A stretch of DNA of 32,000 nt from Buchnera aphidicola (Neophyllaphis podocarpi) (lineage in GTDB: Bacteria > Pseudomonadota > Gammaproteobacteria > Enterobacterales > Enterobacteriaceae), in assembly GCF_964059055.1 (NCBI RefSeq), contig NZ_OZ060386.1:480001-512000 (forward strand), read 5' to 3'. The notes beneath the pieces are model-generated. The model did no database searches, was not told the DNA's origin, and worked only from the letters and a program-made list of their open reading frames with translations. Of this stretch, positions 13,375 to 30,339 are shown piece after piece. The translations under genes and the position numbers were made by a program. The first letter of the stretch is position 1; every line of letters begins with the position of its first letter.

Positions 13375-13749
13375 TTATGTTTTTTTATTTTTAACACCAT
13401 ATTTAGATCTAGATTTTTTTCTATTTTTTACTCCAGCACAATCTAATGATCCTCTAATTACATGATATCTAACTCCAGGCAAATCTTTTACTCTACCACC
13501 ACGAATTAAAACAACTGAATGTTCTTGAAGATTATGTCCTTCACCCCCAATATAAGCAGTAACTTCAAAACCATTAGTCAATCTAACTCTACAAACTTTA
13601 CGTAATGCTGAATTGGGTTTTTTTGGAGTTGTTGTATATACTCTGGTACATACACCTCTTTTTTGAGGACAATTATTCAAAGCAGGAACATTGCTTTTAA
13701 AAACTTTATTGATTCTAGGTTTACGAACTAACTGATTAACTGTAGACAT
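13375..13749 (-). CDS. rpsL: 30S ribosomal protein S12
   Basis: The 124-aa ORF reads [12 protein letters not shown]...[57 protein letters not shown], as in E. coli S12. Confidence 0.98.
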
Positions 13750-14924
13750 TATATTCCCTTAGTTTTATCTATCATATTTTTATATTTTTATAATTTAATT
13801 TTATTGTAATAAAATTATAATAGAAAATAAGCAAAGTAAAAATTTTAGATTACCAAAAATGATTTATATACTTATAATATAATTTTATGAATAAATATTA
13901 TTACAAAATAATTTAAGATCTGTTTTTAATTGTTAAAGAAACAAATAATTTATAACAAACTAATTTAAATTTGCTAGAAATATAATATAAAATACATATT
14001 TATTATAAATATTATTTAAAATATAAAAATTAAAAACTTAAAATGATTTGGTTTAAAAATATTTTTTAAAGAAATAATAATATAATCTTATATCAATAAT
14101 AAATTTATTATTTTTTACATACAAAATAAAATAATAGTTAAGTATCATTAATAGAAAGAGATTTCGTAAAATATTTTACATAAAATTCCAAAATTAAAAA
14201 ATAATAATATGATTGGAATTATGCATATTTTTCAATAATTTTATATTTAATATTTGTAAATAAAAACATTTTATAAAGATATATTTATTTTATAATTAAA
14301 ATATTTTTTATTTAAAATTTGTTTCAAATTAAATTTTTTAATTTATCAAAAAGTTAATACTTTAAAAAAAACACAATTACAAAAAAATTTTTTTTGAGTT
14401 ATAATTTTTGAATCAAATGAATAATACTACCATAATAAAAAAAGATGAATCAGATCTTATATTGAATAATACCATTATAAAATATATACTTTCTTTATTT
14501 TTCTATTGAGACATAAAACAAATTAGAAAATAATAGCTAAAAATTTTATAAATTATTAAAGTATTTATCAGAGAAACTTTTATGAATAATACATATTTTA
14601 ATCGAAGATGCAATATATATATTAAGTTTAAATTTAAATTTAATATGTAACTTTTTTATTAATTTATTAAATTAAAATGAATAAAATTTCTAAAAAATTT
14701 TACTAATATTAAAATTCAATAAAAAAACAAAAAATAATAAAAAATATAAATTAATAAAAAAAATAAATCTTTAAAAAACAATAATGAACTATTAGAATCT
14801 TAAACACTATATAGCAAACCAATAATAATTAACTTATATTTCATTGCAAAAATTTAAAAATATAAAATAATTTATTAAATTCTTTTTAATGATATTTATT
14901 TTATAATCTAAATGTTTTAAAATA
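13750..14924. other. ORF-free, extremely AT-rich 1.2-kb spacer. It probably contains the rpsL promoter and fully eroded remains of former genes.
   Basis: No ORF of 60 aa or more appears on either strand in the supplied track. By eye there are almost no G/C-containing runs and no tRNA-like or structured GC islands. It lies between rpsL and fkpA, where E. coli carries tusB-tusC-tusD-yheO. Confidence 0.6.
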
Positions 14925-15653
14925 CTATTTTATATTTAATAACTCTACATCAAATATCAATGTTGAATTTATTGGAATACCTGGTAATATATTTTTCCCA
15001 TAAGCAAGAGTTGGCGGTATGACTAATTTGATTATACCTCCTTTTTTAATTAATTTTATACCTTCTTGTAAACCATTAATTAAGTTTTTTAATAAAAAAT
15101 GTGCTGAATAGTCTTTTCTATAATAAGAACTATCAAATACAGATTTATCTATTAAAGTACCTATATATTTGATATATATTACTGAACTATCTATTGCAAA
15201 ATTTCCTTTTCCTATTTTTTTTATTAAATAAGCTAAACCGCTTTTAGTTTTTTTAACACCTTCTTTTTTACAAAATTTATTTATATAATTTTGGCCTCTA
15301 AAAAAATTATCTCTAGATTCTTCCTCTAAAACAACTTTATTAGCCTGTTTAAGTTTATTATCTAATAATAATAAAGAATGCGATATTTCTGAATCAGATA
15401 ATTTAACTTTATCAATAATAGAATCTTCTAATCCTAAAATTAAGTTTTTTTTATTCAAAAAAATACCCATTTTTTCTTGATCTTCAAAAAAATTTTTTAT
15501 ATAACGACCAAAAAAAACCCCTAATGAATAATCAGAAAAATATTTTTTTTTTAAATAAAAATTATCATCTTTTAAATTAACACCAAAAGATGATAAACAA
15601 AATATTCTTAAATAAATTAATATGATTATAATTACATAAAATGTAAATTTCAT
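14925..15653 (-). CDS. fkpA: FKBP-type peptidyl-prolyl cis-trans isomerase (periplasmic)
   Basis: The 242-aa ORF has a hydrophobic N-terminal signal-like segment. Its C-terminal FKBP domain is colinear with E. coli FkpA (GVKKTKSGLAYL, YIGTLIDKSVFDSSY, IKKGGIIKLVIPPTLAYGK...GIPxNSTLIFDVELL). Confidence 0.93.
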   Translation of the reverse strand: MKFTFYVIIIILIYLRIFCLSSFGVNLKDDNFYLKKKYFSDYSLGVFFGRYIKNFFEDQEKMGIFLNKKNLILGLEDSIIDKVKLSDSEISHSLLLLDNKLKQANKVVLEEESRDNFFRGQNYINKFCKKEGVKKTKSGLAYLIKKIGKGNFAIDSSVIYIKYIGTLIDKSVFDSSYYRKDYSAHFLLKNLINGLQEGIKLIKKGGIIKLVIPPTLAYGKNILPGIPINSTLIFDVELLNIK

Positions 15654-21095: not shown

Positions 21096-21806
21096 TCAAA
21101 ACAATAAAATTGATTCTAAAGCTAAATTGATCATTTTATTTAGTTTACTTTCTCTATCTATATAGTTTAAACTTTTAGACGTATTAATAATATCAGAGAC
21201 TGTACAAACAGAAATAGCTTGAACGTTTAATTCGGATGCAATACTATAAATTCCAGCTGTTTCCATATCAATACCAAGTATATTATAATTCTTAATTAAT
21301 TTAAAAAGGATAGGATCAATAGTATAAAAAAAATCTGTAGAAAATAAATTTCCTATATGAACTTTATAATTTAATTTTTTAGATGTTTCAAAAAATTTAT
21401 TAAGCATATCAAAATCAGCTATAGCAGCATAATCATAGTTGTTAAATCTTAATCTGTTAAATGAAGAATCTGTACAAGCACCCATACCAATAATTATATC
21501 TTTTAAATTTATACCTTTAATTATAGAACCACAAGTTCCTAATCTAATAATTTTTTTTACATTATAAAAAGTCAATAATTCTTTAATGTAAATAGCACTA
21601 GAAGGAATACCCATTCCATGACTCATAATAGAAACTTTAATATCCTTATACATACCAGTAAATCCTAACATAGAGCGCACATTACTAATTTCTACTACAT
21701 TTTTTAACCAATTAAAAGCAATATATTTGGTTCTAATTGGATCTCCTGTTAAAATAACAATATCAGAAAAATCTGTTTTATTAGCATTTATATGAGGTGT
21801 AATCAT
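21096..21806 (-). CDS. deoD: Purine nucleoside phosphorylase DeoD-type
   Basis: The 236-aa ORF reads MITPHINA...GDPxRxKYIA...MGHGMGIPSxxIYxKEL...GxGACTDS...MExAGIY...CTVSD, colinear with E. coli DeoD. Confidence 0.96.
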   Translation of the reverse strand: MITPHINANKTDFSDIVILTGDPIRTKYIAFNWLKNVVEISNVRSMLGFTGMYKDIKVSIMSHGMGIPSSAIYIKELLTFYNVKKIIRLGTCGSIIKGINLKDIIIGMGACTDSSFNRLRFNNYDYAAIADFDMLNKFFETSKKLNYKVHIGNLFSTDFFYTIDPILFKLIKNYNILGIDMETAGIYSIASELNVQAISVCTVSDIINTSKSLNYIDRESKLNKMINLALESILLF

Positions 21807-21842
21807 ATGTAATCCTTTAAATCATAAATAAAATTATTAAAA

Positions 21843-23072
21843 TTAAAATAAAATATTCTTACCGTATTTCATATCAGATAAATTAAAATAATGTGCCAAA
21901 GTTTGGGCAATATCTGAAAAAGTATTACTATATCCTAAATAGCTATTTTTTTTATGATTTGAATATATAAGTATAGGTATATATTCTCTAGTATGATTAA
22001 AACCTATCCAAGTAGGATCGCAACCGTGATCAGAAGTTATAATTAATAAATCATTATCTTTAATTAATGATAAAATTTTTGGAAGCAGGAGATCAAAATA
22101 TTCTAAATCTCTTGCATAACCAGCTACATTACGTCTATGACCCCATAAAGAATCAAAATCTACAAAATTAGCAAAAACAATAGAGTTGTTTGGAGCTATT
22201 TTAATTTCATTAATAGTTTTATTAAAAATATCATATATACCATCAGCTTTTACTGAATAAGTAATTCCATAATTATTATAAATATCTGAAATTTTTCCAA
22301 TACCAACAACTTGACCTTGTTTTTCAATCAAAAGTTTTTTCATTATAGTTATATCATGTGGCTTGACAGAAAAATCTTTACGATTCATAGAACTACGAAT
22401 GTAATTTTTATTATTTTTACCAGAAAAAGGCCTAGCTATTACACGAGCAACATTATATTTACTTTTATTAAGAATATTCCTAGAAACTTTACATAAAGAA
22501 TAAAGAGAATCTAAACCAAAATAATCTTCATGACAAGCTATTTGAAACACTGAATCAGAAGAAGTATAAAAAATTGGTTTTTTAGTTTTAATATGATCTT
22601 CACCTAAATCACTAATAATAGATGTACCAGATGAATGACAATTTCCTAAATAACCAGATAAACTATTTATATTAACTATTTCATTTAATATTTTATCAGG
22701 AAAACTATATTTTTTATCCTTAAAATAGTGCCAATCGTATAGTACTGGAACTCCTGCAATTTCCCAATGACCTGAAATTGTATCCTTACCAAAAGAAATT
22801 GGACTTGCATAACCATAATTAGCAATTATTTTAGTATTTTTATTAAGACCAAGAGGAAAATTTCCAGAAGCTGCTTCTGAAGCTAAACCAATTCCTAAAG
22901 ATGTCAAATTAGGAATAAATAAAGAACCTCTTCTTCCAAAATTAGCCTTTCCTTTATAACAAAACTCAGCTATATGATTAAGTGTATTAGAACCTTCATC
23001 ACAGAATAGGTGAGAATCTTTTGTATGACCTATTCCTAAAGAATCTAAAACTAATATAAACGCTCTTTTCAT
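21843..23072 (-). CDS. deoB: Phosphopentomutase
   Basis: The 409-aa ORF starts MKRAFILVLDSLGIG and contains GHWEIAG, NFVDFDSLWGHRRNVAGYA and SDHGCDPTW. These match the E. coli DeoB metal and active-site blocks. Confidence 0.96.
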   Translation of the reverse strand: MKRAFILVLDSLGIGHTKDSHLFCDEGSNTLNHIAEFCYKGKANFGRRGSLFIPNLTSLGIGLASEAASGNFPLGLNKNTKIIANYGYASPISFGKDTISGHWEIAGVPVLYDWHYFKDKKYSFPDKILNEIVNINSLSGYLGNCHSSGTSIISDLGEDHIKTKKPIFYTSSDSVFQIACHEDYFGLDSLYSLCKVSRNILNKSKYNVARVIARPFSGKNNKNYIRSSMNRKDFSVKPHDITIMKKLLIEKQGQVVGIGKISDIYNNYGITYSVKADGIYDIFNKTINEIKIAPNNSIVFANFVDFDSLWGHRRNVAGYARDLEYFDLLLPKILSLIKDNDLLIITSDHGCDPTWIGFNHTREYIPILIYSNHKKNSYLGYSNTFSDIAQTLAHYFNLSDMKYGKNILF

Positions 23073-23326
23073 TAAATTACCAAATACTAGTAAATTTATA
23101 AAAATATTTTAATAATAATGATTAATTATATCATTATTAGATAAAAGATTTAAATATCTAATGAGTTAAATGAAGAAAATAATTAAATTAATAAAATATA
23201 TTTCAGTAAATATATTGTTAATTTTCAATAAATAATAATATAAAGGATTAATTGATTTTATTTTAAAAAAAAGCTAAATTAACCAATAAAAATTAATCTT
23301 ATTATTTTAATAATATAAATATAAAA

Positions 23327-24349
23327 ATGAAAAAAAAATCGATATATATATCTTATACTGGCGGGACAATTGGTATGTTAAAAACAAAAAAAGGATATGT
23401 ACCAGAACCTGGAAATTTACAAAATAATATAATATATATGCAAGAATTTCTAAAAACGGAGATACCTAAATTTAAAATAAAAGAATATAACCCTTTAATT
23501 GATTCTTCTAATATGACTCCTCAATAATGGATAATAATAGCTAATGATATAAAAAAAAATTATAATAAATATGATGGATTTATAGTTTTACATGGTACTG
23601 ATACTATGTCTTACACAGCTTCTGCTCTGTCTTTTATTTTAGAAGATCTAAATAAACCAGTAATAATAACAGGATCACAACTTCCTATTTCAGAAATACG
23701 TTCAGATGGAAGAAATAATTTATTAAATTCATTAATAATTGCTGCAAAATATCCCATTAATGAAGTAACAATATTTTTTAATAATTGGCTATATAGAGGT
23801 AACAGAACGACAAAGATAAATGCTAATGGATTTCATGCTTTTGATTCACCAAATTTTCCACCTCTATTAGAGGCAGGAGTTAAGATACGTGAAATATATA
23901 ATAATAAAAAAAAATCAAAAAAAAATAAAAAAAAACAAATTAAAGTTAATAATATTTACCCGCAACCTATTGCTATAATTTCAATATACCCTGGAATATC
24001 TTACAAAATAATTAAAAATTTTCTACTAAAGCCTATTAAAGCATTAATATTATGCTCTTACGGTATAGGAAATGCACCACAAGATAAATATTTTTTGAAC
24101 TCATTAAAAAATGCAATTAAAAATCAAATAATTATATTAAATTTAACGCAATGTATCTCAGGTAAAGTAAATATGAATAGATATGCTTCTGGAAGCTCTT
24201 TAGCTGATATAGGAGTTATAAGCGGACATGACTTAACCATTGAAGCTGCATTGACTAAATTACATTTTTTATTTAGTCAAAATTTTTCTATTGAATTAAT
24301 AAAGAAAAAAATAGAAATTAACATTAGTGGGGAAATAACAACGTCTTAG
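23327..24349 (+). pseudogene. ansA: Cytoplasmic L-asparaginase I interrupted by a single in-frame TAA (codon 67)
   Basis: The two ORF-track pieces (23327-23527 and 23606-24349) are in the same frame. The sequence between them (23528-23605) is open and homologous (WIIIANDIKKNYNKYDGFIVLHGTDTM versus E. coli [27 protein letters not shown]). The only defect is the TAA at 23525-23527, where E. coli has MTPE-D-W. The catalytic blocks YTGGTIGM and HGTDTM are retained. Confidence 0.85.
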
Positions 24350-24418
24350 CATAAATATAAGTCAAAAATTTATATTTTAAAAAATAAATCAAATAAAATT
24401 TTAAATAAAAACTCAAAA

Positions 24419-24991
24419 TCACAAATAAGAATGTTTTCCATATCTATGATTAGTTATATCCTTGACTCCTTTTAATTCAGGAAAGCAAGATAACAATTTC
24501 TTTTCAATTCCTTCTTTGAGAGTTAAATTAATCATAGAACAACCATTGCATCCGCCAGTAAATTTTAAAAAAACATATCCTTCTTTAGTTAGATTAACTA
24601 AGAATACTTTACCTCCATGAGATAATAAATTAGGATTAATTTCCATATCTAAAAAGTTATTTATTTTATCTATTAAATTGTTGTTATTAAATGTTTTTTT
24701 TCTAGCATAAGGAGCTTTCATAGTCAATTGACTTGACAATTCATCTTCTACAATATCAATTTCTGAATCTTTTAAAAAATCACAACTATTAAAATCAACA
24801 TATACATAAAATTGTTTAAAATCTAACTTTATATCCGTAGTATCTACTTCATTTTGTAAACAATATGAAACGCCACATTCTGCGTTTTTTTCACCTGGAT
24901 TATTAACAAATACTCTAATTTGAGTTCCTTTTTTTTGTTTAGATAATAAATCTATAAAATGTTTTTGTGCATTTTTTGTAATTTTAATCAT
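24419..24991 (-). CDS. nfuA: Fe/S biogenesis protein NfuA
   Basis: The 190-aa ORF reads GTQIRVFVxNPGxxNAECGVSYC and GGCNGCSMxxxTLKEGIEKxLLxxFPELKGVxDxTxH, colinear with E. coli NfuA (YhgI). Confidence 0.95.
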   Translation of the reverse strand: MIKITKNAQKHFIDLLSKQKKGTQIRVFVNNPGEKNAECGVSYCLQNEVDTTDIKLDFKQFYVYVDFNSCDFLKDSEIDIVEDELSSQLTMKAPYARKKTFNNNNLIDKINNFLDMEINPNLLSHGGKVFLVNLTKEGYVFLKFTGGCNGCSMINLTLKEGIEKKLLSCFPELKGVKDITNHRYGKHSYL

Positions 24992-25099
24992 ATCTTATAT
25001 TTTATATAAATATTTTTTAAAATTATACTACAATTTTTAAAAAATATTAATAAAAAGATATTTTTTTGTTAAAATTTAATTTTTAAAAAATAAAATAAT

Positions 25100-25885
25100 A
25101 TGAAAAAATTACATTGGGAAACTATAGGTAATGGGAGTATAAATTTAATTTTATTGCACGGATGGGGTCTAAATAATAATGTATGGTTATTTATAATAAA
25201 AAAATTATCAAATCACTTCAAATTATATTTAGTTGATCTTCCTGGATTTGGTTATAGTAATGCATTAAATGATTGTTCATTTAATGAAATTTCAGAAATA
25301 TTATTCCAAAGTATGCCTAAAAAATCTATTTGGTTAGGATGGTCTATGGGAGGATTATTTGTAAACAATATAGGTTTAAATCATTCTAAACAAGTAATAG
25401 CTTTAATAAATATATGTTCTTCGCCTTGTTTTATATCTAAAAAAAACTGGCCAGGGATTAGTGATTCAAAACTAATGCGTATGTTTAACCAATTAAATAA
25501 AAATTATAAGAAAATTATATATTACTTTATAGAAATACAAAATCAACAAACAAAAGAAGAAAAATTAAGTATAGATTTTTTCAAAAAAATAATTTTTTCT
25601 AAACCAATACCAGAAATAAATACATTAAAAAACGGACTAAAAATTCTAAAAAACATCGATTTGAGAGAAAAAATGATTAAATTAAAAGTACCTCTATTAA
25701 GAATTTATGGAGAATTAGATAATTTAGTACCAATTGAAATTAATAATATTCTAAATGTTAAATGGCCTAATACATATTCTTATATAATAAAAAAATCAGG
25801 TCATGCTCCTTTTATTTCTAATCCAGAAATATTATGTAATATCTTAATAAAATTTAAAAAAAAAATAAAAATGAATCTCCAATAG
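25100..25885 (+). CDS. bioH: Pimeloyl-ACP methyl ester carboxylesterase BioH
   Basis: The 261-aa alpha/beta hydrolase is colinear with E. coli BioH. The nucleophile elbow GWSMGG, GELDNLVP and GHAPFIS (triad Ser/Asp/His positions) are all conserved. The last 22 nt (from 25864) belong to the inverted copy of the ssb 3' end. Confidence 0.9.
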   Translation: MKKLHWETIGNGSINLILLHGWGLNNNVWLFIIKKLSNHFKLYLVDLPGFGYSNALNDCSFNEISEILFQSMPKKSIWLGWSMGGLFVNNIGLNHSKQVIALINICSSPCFISKKNWPGISDSKLMRMFNQLNKNYKKIIYYFIEIQNQQTKEEKLSIDFFKKIIFSKPIPEINTLKNGLKILKNIDLREKMIKLKVPLLRIYGELDNLVPIEINNILNVKWPNTYSYIIKKSGHAPFISNPEILCNILIKFKKKIKMNLQ

Positions 25886-26027
25886 ATTTTGAGGATGATA
25901 TACCATTTTAAATCTATATTTTTGTAAATGTAAAAGCCTCATATTGCAATGAGGCTTTTACATTTACAAAAATATAGATTTAAAATGGTATATCATCCTC
26001 AAAATCTATTGGAGATTCATTTTTATT
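25864..26027. repeat. Perfect 164-bp palindrome: 79-bp inverted-repeat arms (25864-25942 and 25949-26027) around a 6-nt centre (attgca)
   Basis: I checked base by base. Every position i in 25864-25942 is complementary to position 51891-i. The first mismatches are the pair 25863/26028 and the central 6 nt. The right arm contains the last 15 codons and the stop of ssb plus its 3' UTR. The left arm overlaps the last 22 nt of bioH. Confidence 0.95.
25932..25959. terminator. Bidirectional rho-independent terminator core shared by the convergent bioH and ssb genes
   Basis: The core is aaaaGCCTCAT-attgca-ATGAGGCtttt. The 7-bp GC-containing stem is flanked by A4 and T4, so a U-tract follows the stem on either strand. 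It forms the centre of the larger palindrome. Confidence 0.7.
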
Positions 26028-26504
26028 AAAAGAATTTTCATTTAGATTTAAATCTGAAGACTTGTGATTTTTATTAATAATTTTATTATTAGATGAAGAA
26101 CTTAAGTTTTTAGATTTTGATGTAGAAACATTAGAATTACTAAAAATTCCAGAATTACGGTTACCTAACATTTGCATAGTACCGTTAATATTTACAACTA
26201 CTTCAGTAGTATAACGATCTTGACCATTCTGATCTTGCCACTTTCTAGTTTGTAAAGTACCTTCTATATAAACTTGAGAACCTTTGCGTAAATAATCACC
26301 AGCAATTTCAGCTAATTTACCAAATAAAACAACACGATGCCATTCTGTCCTTTCTTTACTTTCACCTGTATTTTTATCTTTCCAATTCTCAGAGGTTGCT
26401 AAAGTCATATTAGCAACAGCACCACCATTTGGCATATAACGAATTTCAGGATCTTGACCTAAATTACCTATTAATATTACTTTGTTAATTCCTCTGCTTG
26501 CCAT
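25980..26504 (-). CDS. ssb: Single-stranded DNA-binding protein
   Basis: The 174-aa ORF has an OB-fold N-terminus, [44 protein letters not shown]...[14 protein letters not shown], as in E. coli SSB. The linker is N/S/K-rich and the canonical acidic tip is DFEDDIPF. Confidence 0.97.
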
Positions 26505-26689
26505 ATTTAAATCTCTTAAAATTTAATTATCAAATTAAAATTGTAACATAATTTTTAAAAAAAATTAAAATTAAAAAATAAGAATAAGCAAAATTAAATT
26601 AAGTAGATAATAAATACCAAATAGATCATTAACTGAAAATTAGGTTATAATTATTTTATAAAATAATAAAATTAAAGAAAAAATTAAAT

Positions 26690-28096
26690 ATGAAAATAAA
26701 TAAAATAAAAAATAAAACAGATAAAATATATAAAAATAATGATATAAAAAAAATAAAAATACCTCCTCATTCTTTAGAAGCAGAACAGTCAGTTTTAGGC
26801 GGTTTAATGCTAGATAATGAAAGATGGGACTCGGTATCAGAAAGAATAACAGAAAATGATTTTTTCAGCAGAGCTCATAAATTAATATTTAGAGAAATGC
26901 AAAGTCTATTAGATTTAGGTAATCCCATTGATTTAATCACACTATCAGAATCACTAGAACAAAAAGGAGAATTGGATAATGTGGGAAGATTTGCATATTT
27001 AGCAGAACTATCAAAAAATACTCCTAGTACAGCAAATATAAAAGCATATGCTGATATAGTAAAGGAAAGATCAATAGTAAGGGAAATAATATTAGTTGCA
27101 AATAAAATTGCTAATGCAGGATATGATACAAAAGGACGTAAAAGTGAAGAATTACTTGATTATGCAGAATCAAGTGTATTTAAAATTTCAGAAAAAAGAT
27201 CAAATACAAATGGGGGACCAAAAAATATAGAAGAAATATTAGATTCTACAGTTGAAAACATAGAAAGGTTAATAAAAAACCCTCATGATGGAGTAACGGG
27301 AATAAACACAGGATACGCAGATTTAAATAAAGAAACCTCAGGTTTACAACATTCAGATTTAATAATTATAGCTGCAAGACCTTCAATGGGTAAGACTACA
27401 TTTGCAATGAACTTATGCGAAAATGCAGCAATGATATATGAAAAACCAGTATTAATTTTTAGTTTAGAAATGCCTGGAGAACAAATAATGATTAGAATGT
27501 TAGCTTCATTATCTAGAGTTAAACAAACTAAAATTAGGACAGGACAATTAAGCGATGAAGATTGGTCAAGAATCTCAGGAACTATAAACATTTTATTAAA
27601 AAAGAAAAACATATATATAGATGATTCATCAGGATTAACACCAAGCGAAGTTAGATCTAGAGCAAGAAAAATATACAGAGAAAATAACGGATTAAGTTTA
27701 ATAATGGTAGATTATCTACAACTTATGAGGGTTCCATCTTTATCTGATAATAGAACACTAGAAATAGCAGAAATTTCAAGAACTTTAAAAGCTTTAGCAA
27801 AAGAACTTAAAGTTCCTATTATAGCCTTATCGCAACTAAATAGATCTCTAGAGCAGAGAGCAGATAAGCGTCCAGTTAATTCAGATTTAAGAGAATCTGG
27901 TTCAATAGAACAAGACGCAGACTTAATAATGTTTATATATAGAGATGAAATATATCATGAAAATAGCGATCTAAAAGGTGTAGCGGAAATAATAATAGGA
28001 AAACAAAGAAATGGACCTATTGGAACTATTAAACTAACATTTAACGGTCACTGGTCAAGATTTGATAACTATGCAGGAACAAAATATGAAAAATAA
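26690..28096 (+). CDS. dnaB: Replicative DNA helicase DnaB
   Basis: The 468-aa ORF reads PPHSxEAEQSVLGGLMLDNERWD, ARPSMGKTTFAMNL, LSQLNRSLEQRADKRPVNSDLRESGSIEQDADLIMFIYRDE and IIGKQRNGPIGT, as in E. coli DnaB. Confidence 0.98.
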   Translation: MKINKIKNKTDKIYKNNDIKKIKIPPHSLEAEQSVLGGLMLDNERWDSVSERITENDFFSRAHKLIFREMQSLLDLGNPIDLITLSESLEQKGELDNVGRFAYLAELSKNTPSTANIKAYADIVKERSIVREIILVANKIANAGYDTKGRKSEELLDYAESSVFKISEKRSNTNGGPKNIEEILDSTVENIERLIKNPHDGVTGINTGYADLNKETSGLQHSDLIIIAARPSMGKTTFAMNLCENAAMIYEKPVLIFSLEMPGEQIMIRMLASLSRVKQTKIRTGQLSDEDWSRISGTINILLKKKNIYIDDSSGLTPSEVRSRARKIYRENNGLSLIMVDYLQLMRVPSLSDNRTLEIAEISRTLKALAKELKVPIIALSQLNRSLEQRADKRPVNSDLRESGSIEQDADLIMFIYRDEIYHENSDLKGVAEIIIGKQRNGPIGTIKLTFNGHWSRFDNYAGTKYEK

Positions 28097-28224
28097 ATTA
28101 AAATATTTAAAGCATTTTTTTGCATAAGATATATTTAAAAAATAGCAATTATTTAAATTAGATTTTAATTTTTAAATTAAATATGTAATAATTGATTAAT
28201 AAAATTTCAAAAAAAATAAGAAAT

Positions 28225-29190
28225 ATGAAAATAAAACTTGGTATTGTAATGGACTCTATAAAGCTTATAGACATAGATAAAGATTCAAGTTTTGCTATGT
28301 TAATAGAAGCGCAAAATAGAAAATATGAAATCTATTATATGGAAGAAAAAGACTTATTTTTAGAATCAGAAAACGCTTTTGCAAAAAGTAAAAAAATTAA
28401 GATAAAAAAAGATAAAAAAAAATGGTTCAATTTTATTGATAATAAAAAAATTAATTTATGTGAATTAGATGTAATCTTAATGAGAAAAGATCCTCCTGTA
28501 AATATGCAATTTATATATACTACATATATTTTAGAAAAAGCTGAGAAAAAAGGAACGATAATAATAAATAAACCAAAAAGTTTACGTAATTTTAATGAAA
28601 AAATATTTATATTCGATTTCAAAGAAATAATACCTAAAACTATAGTAACAAAAGATATAAAAATAATTAAAAATTTTATAGAAAAACAAAAAGAAATTGT
28701 ATTAAAACCACTAGATCTAATGGGAGGAAAATCTATTTTTAGAATAAAAAAAAATGATCCAAATTACTTATCAATTGTAGAATTAATGACTAACTATGAA
28801 AAAAAATACTGCATGGCTCAAGAATATATATCTGAAATTAACAACGGAGATAAAAGAATAATCGTAGTCAATGGAAAAATTATTCCTTGGTTGTTAAAAA
28901 GAATTCCAAAAAACGGAGAAACTAGAGCTAATATAATGAGTGGAGGTAAAGGAATAGTAGAAAAAATAAATGAAAAAGATTTAAAAATTGCTAAAATAAT
29001 AGCAAAAAAACTTAAGTTGAATAAAATATTTTTAGCTGGAATTGATATTATAGGAGATAAATTAACAGAAATAAATATTACAAGCCCAACATGTATTGTA
29101 GAAATACAAAAATTCTCAAAAGTGCCTATTTGTAAAATAATAATGAATGAAATAGAAAATCAAATTAAAATTAAAAAACAAAAAAGTTAA
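28225..29190 (+). CDS. gshB: Glutathione synthetase
   Basis: From MKIKLGIVMD the ORF is colinear with E. coli GshB (MIKLGIVMDP...KDSSFAMLxEAQ...DVILMRKDPP...KPLDxMGGxSIFR...YCMAQxY...GDKRxxVVxG...GETRxN...GLDIIGDxLTEINxTSPTC). The ORF-track start at 28192 is a TTG 11 codons upstream, so the ATG at 28225 is preferred. Confidence 0.94.
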   Translation: MKIKLGIVMDSIKLIDIDKDSSFAMLIEAQNRKYEIYYMEEKDLFLESENAFAKSKKIKIKKDKKKWFNFIDNKKINLCELDVILMRKDPPVNMQFIYTTYILEKAEKKGTIIINKPKSLRNFNEKIFIFDFKEIIPKTIVTKDIKIIKNFIEKQKEIVLKPLDLMGGKSIFRIKKNDPNYLSIVELMTNYEKKYCMAQEYISEINNGDKRIIVVNGKIIPWLLKRIPKNGETRANIMSGGKGIVEKINEKDLKIAKIIAKKLKLNKIFLAGIDIIGDKLTEINITSPTCIVEIQKFSKVPICKIIMNEIENQIKIKKQKS

Positions 29191-29197
29191 AATAAAA

Positions 29198-29614
29198 ATG
29201 TTTATTATTGCAATAGATTTTGGAACTAAAAGTATAGGAATAGCTATAGGGCAAAAAATAACTTATACAGCTAACCCATTAAAAACAATAAAATGTAAAA
29301 ATAAAATTATATTTTGGAAAAAAATAAAAAATATTTTAGAAAAATGGAAACCTATATTTATAATAGTAGGATTACCTTTAAACATTGATGGATCAATACA
29401 AAACATCACAAAAAAAGCAATAAAATTTTCGAAAGAAATTAAGTCAAAATTTAATATTGATGTAAAATTACAAGATGAAAGACTAACTACAATAGAAGCC
29501 AAATCTATTATATTTAAACAAAAAGGATTTAAGCATCTAAAAAAAAATAAAATAGATTCTATGTCTGCTGTAATAATATTAGAAAGTTGGTTAAATAAAC
29601 AAAGAAGAAAGTAA
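29198..29614 (+). CDS. ruvX: Putative pre-16S rRNA nuclease / Holliday-junction-resolvase-like protein YqgF
   Basis: The 138-aa ORF reads DFGTKSIGxAxGQxIT...IVGLPLNxDGxxQ...DERLxTxEA...xDSxSAVIILESW, colinear with E. coli YqgF. It lies 7 nt after gshB. Confidence 0.9.
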   Translation: MFIIAIDFGTKSIGIAIGQKITYTANPLKTIKCKNKIIFWKKIKNILEKWKPIFIIVGLPLNIDGSIQNITKKAIKFSKEIKSKFNIDVKLQDERLTTIEAKSIIFKQKGFKHLKKNKIDSMSAVIILESWLNKQRRK

Positions 29615-29649
29615 AAAATAATTTAAAAAATAAAAAAGTAATTTGAAAA

Positions 29650-30339
29650 ATGAATAATTCTATATCAAAAAATATAAAAAAAATAAAAATAAAAATACAA
29701 AAAACAGCAGAAAAATATAAAAAAGATAAAAAAAAAATAAGATTATTAGCGGTCAGTAAACAAAAATCGATCATAGAAATAGAAAAAGCAATAAATAGCA
29801 ATCAATTTGATTTTGCAGAAAACTATGCTCAAGAAGCAATAAAAAAAATAAAAATTTTAAATAAAAAGAAATATAAAATAATATGGCATTTTATTGGAAA
29901 AATACAAAGTAATAAAACTAAGATAATTGCTCAAAACTTCTCTTGGTGTCATAGTATATGTAATTCTAGAATAGCAATAAAATTAAATAATTATAGAACA
30001 AAAGAATTATTACCTTTAAACTCGTTAATACAAATTAATATAAAAAAAAACAATGAAATTGATGACAAAGAAATATATAATATTTCTGATATTATAAAAT
30101 CTTTGCCTAATTTAAAGTTAAGAGGAATAATGGCAATTCCTAATAAACTAAACAAAAACAAAGAAAAAGAAATAAAAGCAACATATAAAAAAATAGAAAA
30201 AATATATAATAAACTAAAAGAAAAATATTCATCAATAGATACTTTATCATTAGGAATGAGTAATGATATAAGAATAGCTATAAAAAATGGAAGTAATATG
30301 CTAAGAATAGGTAAATCAATATTTGGTAACAGAAAATAA
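29650..30339 (+). CDS. yggS: PLP-binding homeostasis protein YggS family
   Basis: The 229-aa ORF reads LLAVSKxK (PLP lysine), FxENYxQE, WHFIGxxQSNK, NxLIQINI, LRGxMAIP, DTLSLGMSxD and MxRIGxxIFG, as in E. coli YggS. Confidence 0.9.
   Translation: MNNSISKNIKKIKIKIQKTAEKYKKDKKKIRLLAVSKQKSIIEIEKAINSNQFDFAENYAQEAIKKIKILNKKKYKIIWHFIGKIQSNKTKIIAQNFSWCHSICNSRIAIKLNNYRTKELLPLNSLIQINIKKNNEIDDKEIYNISDIIKSLPNLKLRGIMAIPNKLNKNKEKEIKATYKKIEKIYNKLKEKYSSIDTLSLGMSNDIRIAIKNGSNMLRIGKSIFGNRK

Follow-up and report, generated by a model that had tools for sequence, protein, structure and literature searches.

In the current work, a 32,000-nucleotide stretch of the Buchnera aphidicola genome recorded for the aphid Neophyllaphis podocarpi (contig NZ_OZ060386.1, positions 480,001 to 512,000; hereafter the window, numbered from its first letter) was analysed, and was found to contain a perfect 164-bp palindrome at the point where the convergent genes bioH, encoding pimeloyl-acyl carrier protein (ACP) methyl ester esterase, and ssb, encoding single-stranded DNA-binding protein (SSB), meet. 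The palindrome reaches into both genes, and it is shared, with the same arms and a different 6-nt centre in each case, by three Neophyllaphis-symbiont genomes. It probably arose by template-switch (fold-back) expansion of a terminator hairpin, and would since have been kept symmetrical by repeated re-copying, in a lineage which is reported to be without RecA and SbcCD.

An inverted-repeat search of the window returned two arms complementary at 79 of 79 positions around the 6-nt centre ATTGCA, which bears out the exact palindrome described in an earlier reading of the same letters (hereafter the original prediction), and a recount extended the pairing far beyond the 7-bp terminator stem, as far as 25863/26028, where A stands opposite A. 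This 79-nt inverted repeat is the longest of the window, the runners-up being of 22-39 nt at 71-91%, and with a complementary-pair probability of 0.316 (from the base composition of the window) the chance expectation is approximately 2e-34 such palindromes per window. A 30-nt piece of the arm occurs twice in the window, at the arm positions only, and beyond the window the arm sequence is also present in the two related genomes described below. A single hairpin is predicted for the strand, with a folding energy of -122.6 kcal/mol as RNA (z = -23.8) and of -86.3 kcal/mol as DNA (z = -21.7). No Rfam 15 family matched the palindrome at its gathering score, sub-threshold hits being to generic hairpin-shaped microRNA (miRNA) precursor models (one of them scoring 76.9 bits where 245 are required), and a gathering-score scan of the whole window returned one transfer RNA only.

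The assignment of the two genes in the original prediction was correct, with the open reading frames (ORFs) placing bioH on the plus strand and ssb on the minus strand in convergent orientation (Table 1); the window proteins have the entries CAL4325552.1 (BioH) and CAL4325560.1 (SSB), and dnaB follows ssb at 26690. In the protein alignment the 11-residue C-terminal tail encoded by the right arm aligns with the SSB tails of outgroup Buchnera, which agrees with the earlier description of this arm as the functional 3' end of ssb. The left arm, on the other hand, has no homology to the BioH tails of other Buchnera: it provides bioH with the third base of a Lys codon, followed by IKMNLQ and a TAG stop, and while BioH of other Buchnera and of Citrobacter terminates at the column of I256, KMNLQ alone extends past that column. 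Since the conserved tail of SSB is encoded in the right arm, and homology to other BioH proteins is lost at the arm boundary, the right arm is, judged from these alignments, the original sequence and the left arm an inverted copy that overwrote the end of BioH and the downstream spacer, beginning almost exactly where BioH homology ends, as had been proposed. One arm is accordingly orthologous to ancestral sequence and the other replaces unrelated sequence, in the manner characteristic of a template switch.

Table 1 Features of the bioH-ssb region, in window coordinates
Feature	Position	Strand	Description
bioH	25100..25885	+	Pimeloyl-ACP methyl ester esterase, 261 amino acids (aa); ORF, homologues named BioH with Pfam abhydrolase domains, alignment; protein ends KFKKKIKMNLQ*, last 6 codons and stop inside left arm
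A10 run	25856..25865	+	Lies across outer edge of left arm; A10 in window and CP135042, AAAGAAAAAA in CP135039
Left arm	25864..25942	.	79 nt; inverted copy (by alignment) of ssb 3' end; final codons and stop of bioH plus most of bioH-ssb spacer; identical in CP135039 and CP135042
BioH tail IKMNLQ*	25865..25885	+	Copied ssb sequence read in another frame; same tail in proteins P0001 and P0122
Core hairpin	25932..25959	.	AAAAGCCTCAT-N6-ATGAGGCTTTT; presumed ancestral bidirectional terminator and seed of palindrome
Spacer	25943..25948	.	6-nt centre ATTGCA, hypervariable
Right arm	25949..26027	.	79 nt; original sequence (by alignment)
ssb 3' untranslated region (UTR)	25949..25979		31 nt, part of right arm
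ssb stop codon	25980..25982		Part of right arm
Last 15 codons of ssb	25983..26027		45 nt, part of right arm
ssb	25980..26504	-	Single-stranded DNA-binding protein, 174 aa; ORF, Pfam SSB on the CP135039 orthologue, alignment; convergent with bioH

The outer edge of the left arm lies within a run of A's, and a single additional A in 25856-25865 would place bioH in frame with the copied 15-residue SSB tail without an intervening stop upon translation. As transcriptional slippage on long A runs reportedly takes place in Buchnera, the copy might be thought to serve the addition of the SSB C-terminal peptide to BioH by slippage, generating a protein with the SSB interaction tip. Hardly any credence is given to this explanation: the slippery tract is not conserved (it reads AAAGAAAAAA in CP135039), all three genomes have KIKMNLQ* at the end of the annotated frame, and an SSB tip is not known to confer any advantage on an esterase of the biotin pathway. 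Since the A run is interrupted in CP135039, a BioH-SSB-tail fusion product, if any, is regarded as a by-product of the copy and not as its purpose.

The ancestral state of the locus was assessed using six outgroup Buchnera, namely a Joint Genome Institute (JGI) metagenome bin (L005), the symbionts of Hormaphis cornu (L006) and Baizongia pistaciae (L007), a Hyadaphis-type Logan contig (L008) and two further Logan contigs (L129 and L130). The convergent arrangement of bioH (+) and ssb (-) is found in 9 of 9 Buchnera genomes, with outgroup spacers of 27-829 nt, and neither a long palindrome nor copied ssb codons are present in any of the six outgroup bioH-ssb regions. Four of these six carry a G+C-rich hairpin of 5-7 bp just 3' of bioH, being AGCCCC-N8-GGGGCT in L008, AGCCCCA-N7/8-TGGGGCT in L129 and L130, and CCCCTAA..TTAGGG in L005. 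Because the outgroups show a short hairpin at most, without the ssb-codon copy, the 79-nt arms are by this comparison the derived state, in keeping with the suggestion that the core hairpin alone is ancestral, and the perfect inverted repeat is expanded relative to the orthologous site in relatives (79 nt versus 5-7 bp). Among the outgroups, the called SSB of H. cornu (CP051840, 4107-4571) comprises 154 aa and is without the D-D-I-P-F C-terminal tip of other Buchnera, and the bioH-ssb spacer of this genome (3278-4106) measures 829 nt compared to 27-94 nt elsewhere.

At the core of the palindrome the sequence GCCTCAT-N6-ATGAGGC is flanked by AAAA and TTTT, and the inner 18 bp are predicted to fold with approximately -24 kcal/mol on either strand. 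This core may be orthologous to the outgroup hairpin, and because of its position between convergent genes, the comparable hairpins in L005, L008, L129 and L130, and the A4/T4 flanks, it is plausibly a bidirectional terminator. A consensus terminator scan of 24900-26800 called no terminator, and two terminator-like sites were found in 20 kb of this genome; the earlier claim that the axis of symmetry is the loop of a bidirectional terminator is thus supported insofar as the centre coincides with a hairpin that other Buchnera possess, but not by the scan. If transcription ends at the core, then the long stem would exist in DNA only, whereas read-through would furnish both mRNAs with a 79-bp duplex. 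A metagenome scan for AAAAGCCTCAT-N6-ATGAGGCTTTT gave at least 120 matches, with mostly marine or other environmental contig names among the 80 listed, and since none of the retrieved metagenome loci matching the core contains the longer arm sequence, the core alone is regarded as a generic hairpin.

The palindrome recurs in two genomes that fall in the same 90% protein clusters as the window BioH and SSB, namely CP135039 (Buchnera of N. podocarpi, 559,476 bp) and CP135042 (Buchnera of N. varicolor, 559,524 bp), the window record being a 559,180-bp contig with an ENA-type accession from a different submitter. Both genomes possess, at the orthologous site, 79-nt arms with 100% complementarity and 6 nt between them; in the alignment the arms are base-for-base identical in all three genomes and the outer boundaries are the same, and the KIKMNLQ tail of BioH is annotated in each of the three. 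The source aphids of CP135039 and CP135042 were collected in Guangzhou and Fuzhou, and the genomes were obtained from Illumina 2x150 metagenomic libraries involving the polymerase chain reaction (PCR), by assembly with MEGAHIT, NOVOPlasty and Geneious followed by Pilon, with no description of a whole-genome amplification step such as multiple displacement amplification (MDA) (PMC11193766). A French group's preprint, which includes N. podocarpus, announces twelve new Buchnera genomes assembled according to an earlier protocol of the group, with SPAdes described for the mitogenome reads, and may be the source of the window. In addition, the Logan contig SRR29340286_4844 (11.8 kb) carries bioH and ends 8 nt past its stop codon, that is 30 nt into the left arm; this contig crosses the bioH/arm junction, which is therefore present in the reads. 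The contig ends where the Logan graph (k=31) would be expected to branch, since a sequence shared with its own reverse complement is entered there. A search of genome contigs with BioH returned solely an unrelated Saprospiraceae locus (L002).

Across an 8.8-kb three-genome alignment (window 21101-29882), divergence amounts to 5.35% between the window and CP135039, 5.2% between CP135039 and CP135042, and 0.84% between the window and CP135042, with variable columns at 9.9% of intergenic sites and 10.3% of third codon positions. The palindrome is real and vertically inherited, and it predates a split since which about one in ten silent sites has changed. Because the same palindrome, with identical boundaries, is found in genomes up to 5.35% apart, the very recent event that had been contemplated for its origin is excluded. 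The artefact that had been offered as an alternative, by which an inverted chimera would have been made at the terminator hairpin during assembly, library preparation or amplification, is very unlikely for its part. Hairpins are known chimera sites in PCR and MDA, a single pipeline stands behind two of the three genomes and their libraries included PCR; against this, the same arms and outer junctions are shared by three assemblies that represent three aphid samples and two submitters, and are not confined to one assembly with a junction unsupported elsewhere. Furthermore, the bioH/arm junction is present in the independent Logan assembly, the two CP genomes were described without an MDA step, the annotated BioH tail is the same throughout, and independent copies of one artefact would leave the three differing spacers unexplained.

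The host labels of these genomes clash with the measured distances, as the window SSB is labelled as belonging to the N. podocarpi symbiont while the window DNA is close to the N. varicolor genome (0.84%) and distant from the N. podocarpi genome (5.35%), which suggests a misidentified host or a cryptic species.

Among the three genomes, 0 of 158 arm columns are variable as opposed to 13 of 158 in the adjacent 79-nt flanks (6 and 7, respectively; Fisher p = 1.9e-4), and the number of unpaired arm differences is likewise zero. Under local class-specific rates, arms evolving independently would be expected to have accumulated approximately 5.5 changes on the right and 6.8 on the left (approximately 12 in total), the probability of observing none being approximately 5e-6, and the 8.8-kb alignment contains no 158-nt window without a variable site. 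Independent evolution of the arms is rejected by these data. The same figures bear on the possibility that the palindrome was formed once, shortly before the three lineages split, and owes its symmetry to luck or recency, with neither homogenisation nor selection being involved. It is not unusual for these genomes to share invariant runs of 80-124 bp, and 1.4% of the 79-nt windows of this region lack a variable site, yet such a history is highly unlikely, as it requires both arms to have remained unchanged on every branch in the face of the approximately 12 changes expected, in a region where no stretch of that length is invariant and the immediate flanks have varied.

Selection acting to keep a functional element perfect, such as an mRNA-protecting 3' hairpin, a strengthened bidirectional terminator or an RNase III site for read-through transcripts, could also account for the invariant arms, which show even fewer changes than unbiased homogenisation predicts. 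The palindrome lies exactly where outgroups carry a hairpin, its predicted RNA fold is extremely stable, and rnc is present in 46 of 47 strains in the visible part of a 90-strain Buchnera table. This explanation is nevertheless considered unlikely, since one mismatch in a 79-bp stem of -122 kcal/mol would barely alter its stability, and selection of sufficient strength is hard to credit in a symbiont in which, according to Buchnera population genetics, purifying selection is weak. Moreover, the distal arm would be untranscribed if the core terminator works, outgroups manage with stems of 5-7 bp, and the Rfam comparison yielded generic hairpin hits with no match above threshold.

The centre of the palindrome is hypervariable, a point which was missed in the original prediction. 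The spacer reads ATTGCA in the window, TGGAAT in CP135039 and TATGAT in CP135042, so that its length is 6 in all three and 6 of 6 columns are variable. When the CP135039 spacer is reverse-complemented, 5 of its 6 positions agree with the window spacer, compared to 0 of 6 in the direct orientation, and a flip plus one substitution would explain this relationship. Between the window and CP135042, for which the background divergence is 0.84%, 4 of the 6 spacer positions are different (3 after a flip), the probability of three or more differences being approximately 2e-5 to 7e-5. The centre of CP135042 (4844-4853 of the retrieved locus, L003) consists of a tandem TATGA-TATGA, and in the window the spacer and the next two bases (25943-25950, ATTGCAAT) form a palindrome of 8 nt, the axis of which is displaced by one base; either feature might have been left by a templated change at the centre. 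Per-base mosaics of one spacer in both orientations, representing a polishing artefact of a flip-flopping population, were also considered and proved uninformative, in that both other spacers fit such a mosaic at 5 of 6 positions but so would approximately 11% of random hexamers. As it differs between near-identical genomes and may flip, the centre is unsuited as an ordinary phylogenetic signal.

The fold-back or template-switch extension of the terminator hairpin put forward in the original prediction is retained as the best mechanism, being in accordance with the known effects of template switching. In the ancestor, bioH and ssb would have converged on a short G+C-rich hairpin, presumably terminating both transcripts. 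Expansion probably took place in one fold-back event in the common ancestor of the three symbionts: the nascent strand, in which the hairpin had just been copied, would have paired with itself or with the sister strand, the ssb side would have served as template for approximately 68 further bases, and synthesis would then have returned to the bioH side. As a result, an inverted ssb 3' UTR, stop codon and last 15 codons would have been laid over the original bioH tail and downstream spacer, with BioH acquiring a new and harmless 6-residue end; in a variant of this scheme, fold-back would have followed a nearby double-strand break. Once formed, a long perfect hairpin would favour the same fold-back, and mismatches between the arms would be erased by re-copying, amounting to concerted evolution without RecA, in which the ssb arm would be constrained by the conserved SSB tail and the terminator. 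The unpaired centre would not be protected in this way, and the fast change observed there may be caused by spacer inversion and short templated multi-base events.

Tolerance of such a palindrome may be connected with the reported lack in Buchnera of both RecA and the hairpin nuclease SbcCD, which is drawn partly from the literature. Buchnera is described as being without RecA and nearly all homologous recombination proteins (PMC1193525; Rocha et al.). In the part of the 90-strain table (Table S2) that was covered, which excludes the Neophyllaphis columns, the DNA-repair rows comprise endA, mutH/L/S/T/Y, nfo, nth, phrB, polA, recB/C/D, sbcB and ung, with recA, sbcC and sbcD not among them. The earlier argument that SbcCD would attack a palindrome of this size, and that its persistence is informative on the repair repertoire, is consistent with those rows for the strains that they cover. 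The reported absence of RecA and SbcCD fits both the tolerance of a 164-bp palindrome and a RecA-independent upkeep of its symmetry. We also propose, more tentatively, that the palindrome could be self-renewing, in the sense that in a cell without RecA and SbcCD replication fold-back re-copies arm from arm at a frequency sufficient for the two to stay identical on an evolutionary time scale, with each event carrying a risk of scrambling or flipping the centre. If true, this locus would preserve, in the chromosome of a bacterium, the natural record of a long period of concerted evolution independent of RecA and of palindrome instability focused on the centre.

Several points weigh against this account of expansion and re-copying. 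The core is negative in the terminator scan and has four T's only after a 7-bp G+C-containing stem, two of the three assemblies were produced by one pipeline, and the repair table leaves out Neophyllaphis in the part covered. The spacer of CP135042 fits no simple flip (3 of 6 positions at best), and the orientation given to the spacer of a perfect palindrome by short-read assembly may be assembler-dependent. Treating the arms as one unit gives an expectation of approximately 3.5-5.5 paired changes, with a probability of approximately 0.004-0.03 for their complete absence, so that extra constraint or luck is required, and the invariant 79-nt windows mentioned above would exist in any case. Finally, no paired substitution, affecting both arms, is present among the three genomes, and concerted evolution is therefore inferred and not directly seen. 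The arms are thus compatible with homogenisation, apart from being conserved slightly more than it explains; the earlier suggestion of ongoing homogenisation is upheld by arms that are perfect in three of three genomes while their flanks diverge, it lacks the paired substitution, and it is the best available reading.

Template switching is known to homogenise the arms of inverted repeats, to expand such repeats, to invert spacers and to rewrite codons (PMC13100816; PMC8604942; PMC5941160). One-step arm lengthening has been documented in yeast, from 7 to 25 bp at ERT1 and from 9 to 24 bp at GRE2 (PMC13100816), and template-switch changes in coding sequence have been seen to rewrite several neighbouring codons (PMC8604942). 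The Buchnera palindrome resembles these systems (the Ripley 1982 model and the yeast cases) in that a short perfect inverted repeat of relatives becomes a much longer perfect one, that one arm acts as template and the other overwrites unrelated sequence including codons, that spacer inversion is possible, and that multi-base changes may be clustered in one event. It differs from the yeast cases in its 79-bp arms, which are approximately three times those of the longest among them, in its seed, which is a presumed terminator hairpin between convergent bacterial genes in a reportedly RecA-less obligate symbiont, and in the persistence of the perfect state across lineages 5% apart.

In Proteobacteria, perfect inverted repeats are conserved above expectation, which has been attributed to template switching (PMC5941160). 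Quasipalindrome template-switch mutation in E. coli (PMC7202029) is comparable to the process proposed here in being RecA-independent and in turning imperfect into perfect inverted repeats, although all catalogued non-coding inverted repeats of E. coli MG1655 have arms of less than 20 bp (PMC5941160) as opposed to the 79-bp arms in Buchnera, which reach into two genes. With respect to engineered palindromes in the E. coli chromosome, the joint absence of SbcCD and RecA is the specific condition under which inverted duplications form around palindromes of 85 bp and 246 bp, and SbcCD cleaves the 246-bp but not the 85-bp interrupted palindrome in lacZ (PMC3315005). These share with the Buchnera locus a long palindrome able to form a hairpin on single-stranded DNA at replication, and in E. 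coli such palindromes are retained, and give rise to fold-back inverted duplications, in the very background without SbcCD and RecA that is ascribed to Buchnera. The Buchnera palindrome, unlike the engineered ones, is natural, has a length (164 bp) between 85 and 246 bp, and has a spacer of 6 nt instead of 24 bp; in contrast to the E. coli case, no large inverted duplication was seen at it.

In plastid genomes, small inversions recur in loops enclosed by short inverted repeats close to the 3' ends of genes, even among close relatives, with the stems left intact and typically measuring approximately 10-30 bp. The Buchnera centre differs from these hairpin inversions in that a simple flip suits only one of its three pairwise spacer comparisons. 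The palindrome can be viewed as a natural case of a known mutational process that is unusual for its size and its age. Long perfect palindromes are generally regarded as transient features of bacterial chromosomes, and the present one has remained base-perfect in lineages with approximately 10% silent-site difference, in a host that reportedly possesses neither the nuclease by which they are attacked nor the recombinase to which the homogenisation of repeats is usually ascribed. It therefore offers a natural test case for how far template switching alone can create and maintain inverted repeats, for the mode of mutation of palindrome centres, and for a non-adaptive replication error that rewrites the end of a protein, here that of BioH.

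Other identities of the palindrome were considered and rejected. A mobile element with terminal inverted repeats, similar to a miniature inverted-repeat transposable element (MITE), is at odds with a single-copy sequence whose right arm is nothing other than the end of the ssb gene. A replication origin or terminus was considered since the GC skew flips sign near 25-27 kb, and was discarded as the skew tracks gene orientation across the window and the locus lies approximately 50 kb from the record end. Each arm also contains one outward promoter-like pair, TTTACA-18-TAAAAT (25957-25986 on the plus strand and 25934-25905 on the minus strand), with 10 of 12 matches; the two are mirror images lying antisense to ssb and to bioH, and were given no weight, as 16 such pairs were found where 18 are expected in shuffled sequence (184 versus 191 in a second scan).

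Elsewhere in the window, the ansA-like asparaginase gene (23327-24349) contains a TAA at 23525-23527 where CP135039 and CP135042 have GAA and an intact gene of 340 aa, representing either a private nonsense mutation or a base error. The region 13750-14925 (approximately 1.2 kb, 12% G+C), located between the ORFs 13375-13749 and 14925-15653, is devoid of ORFs of at least 80 aa and may be a decayed gene region. An nfuA-like gene (at approximately 24678) carries a 3-nt insertion that is private to the window in comparison with both other genomes.

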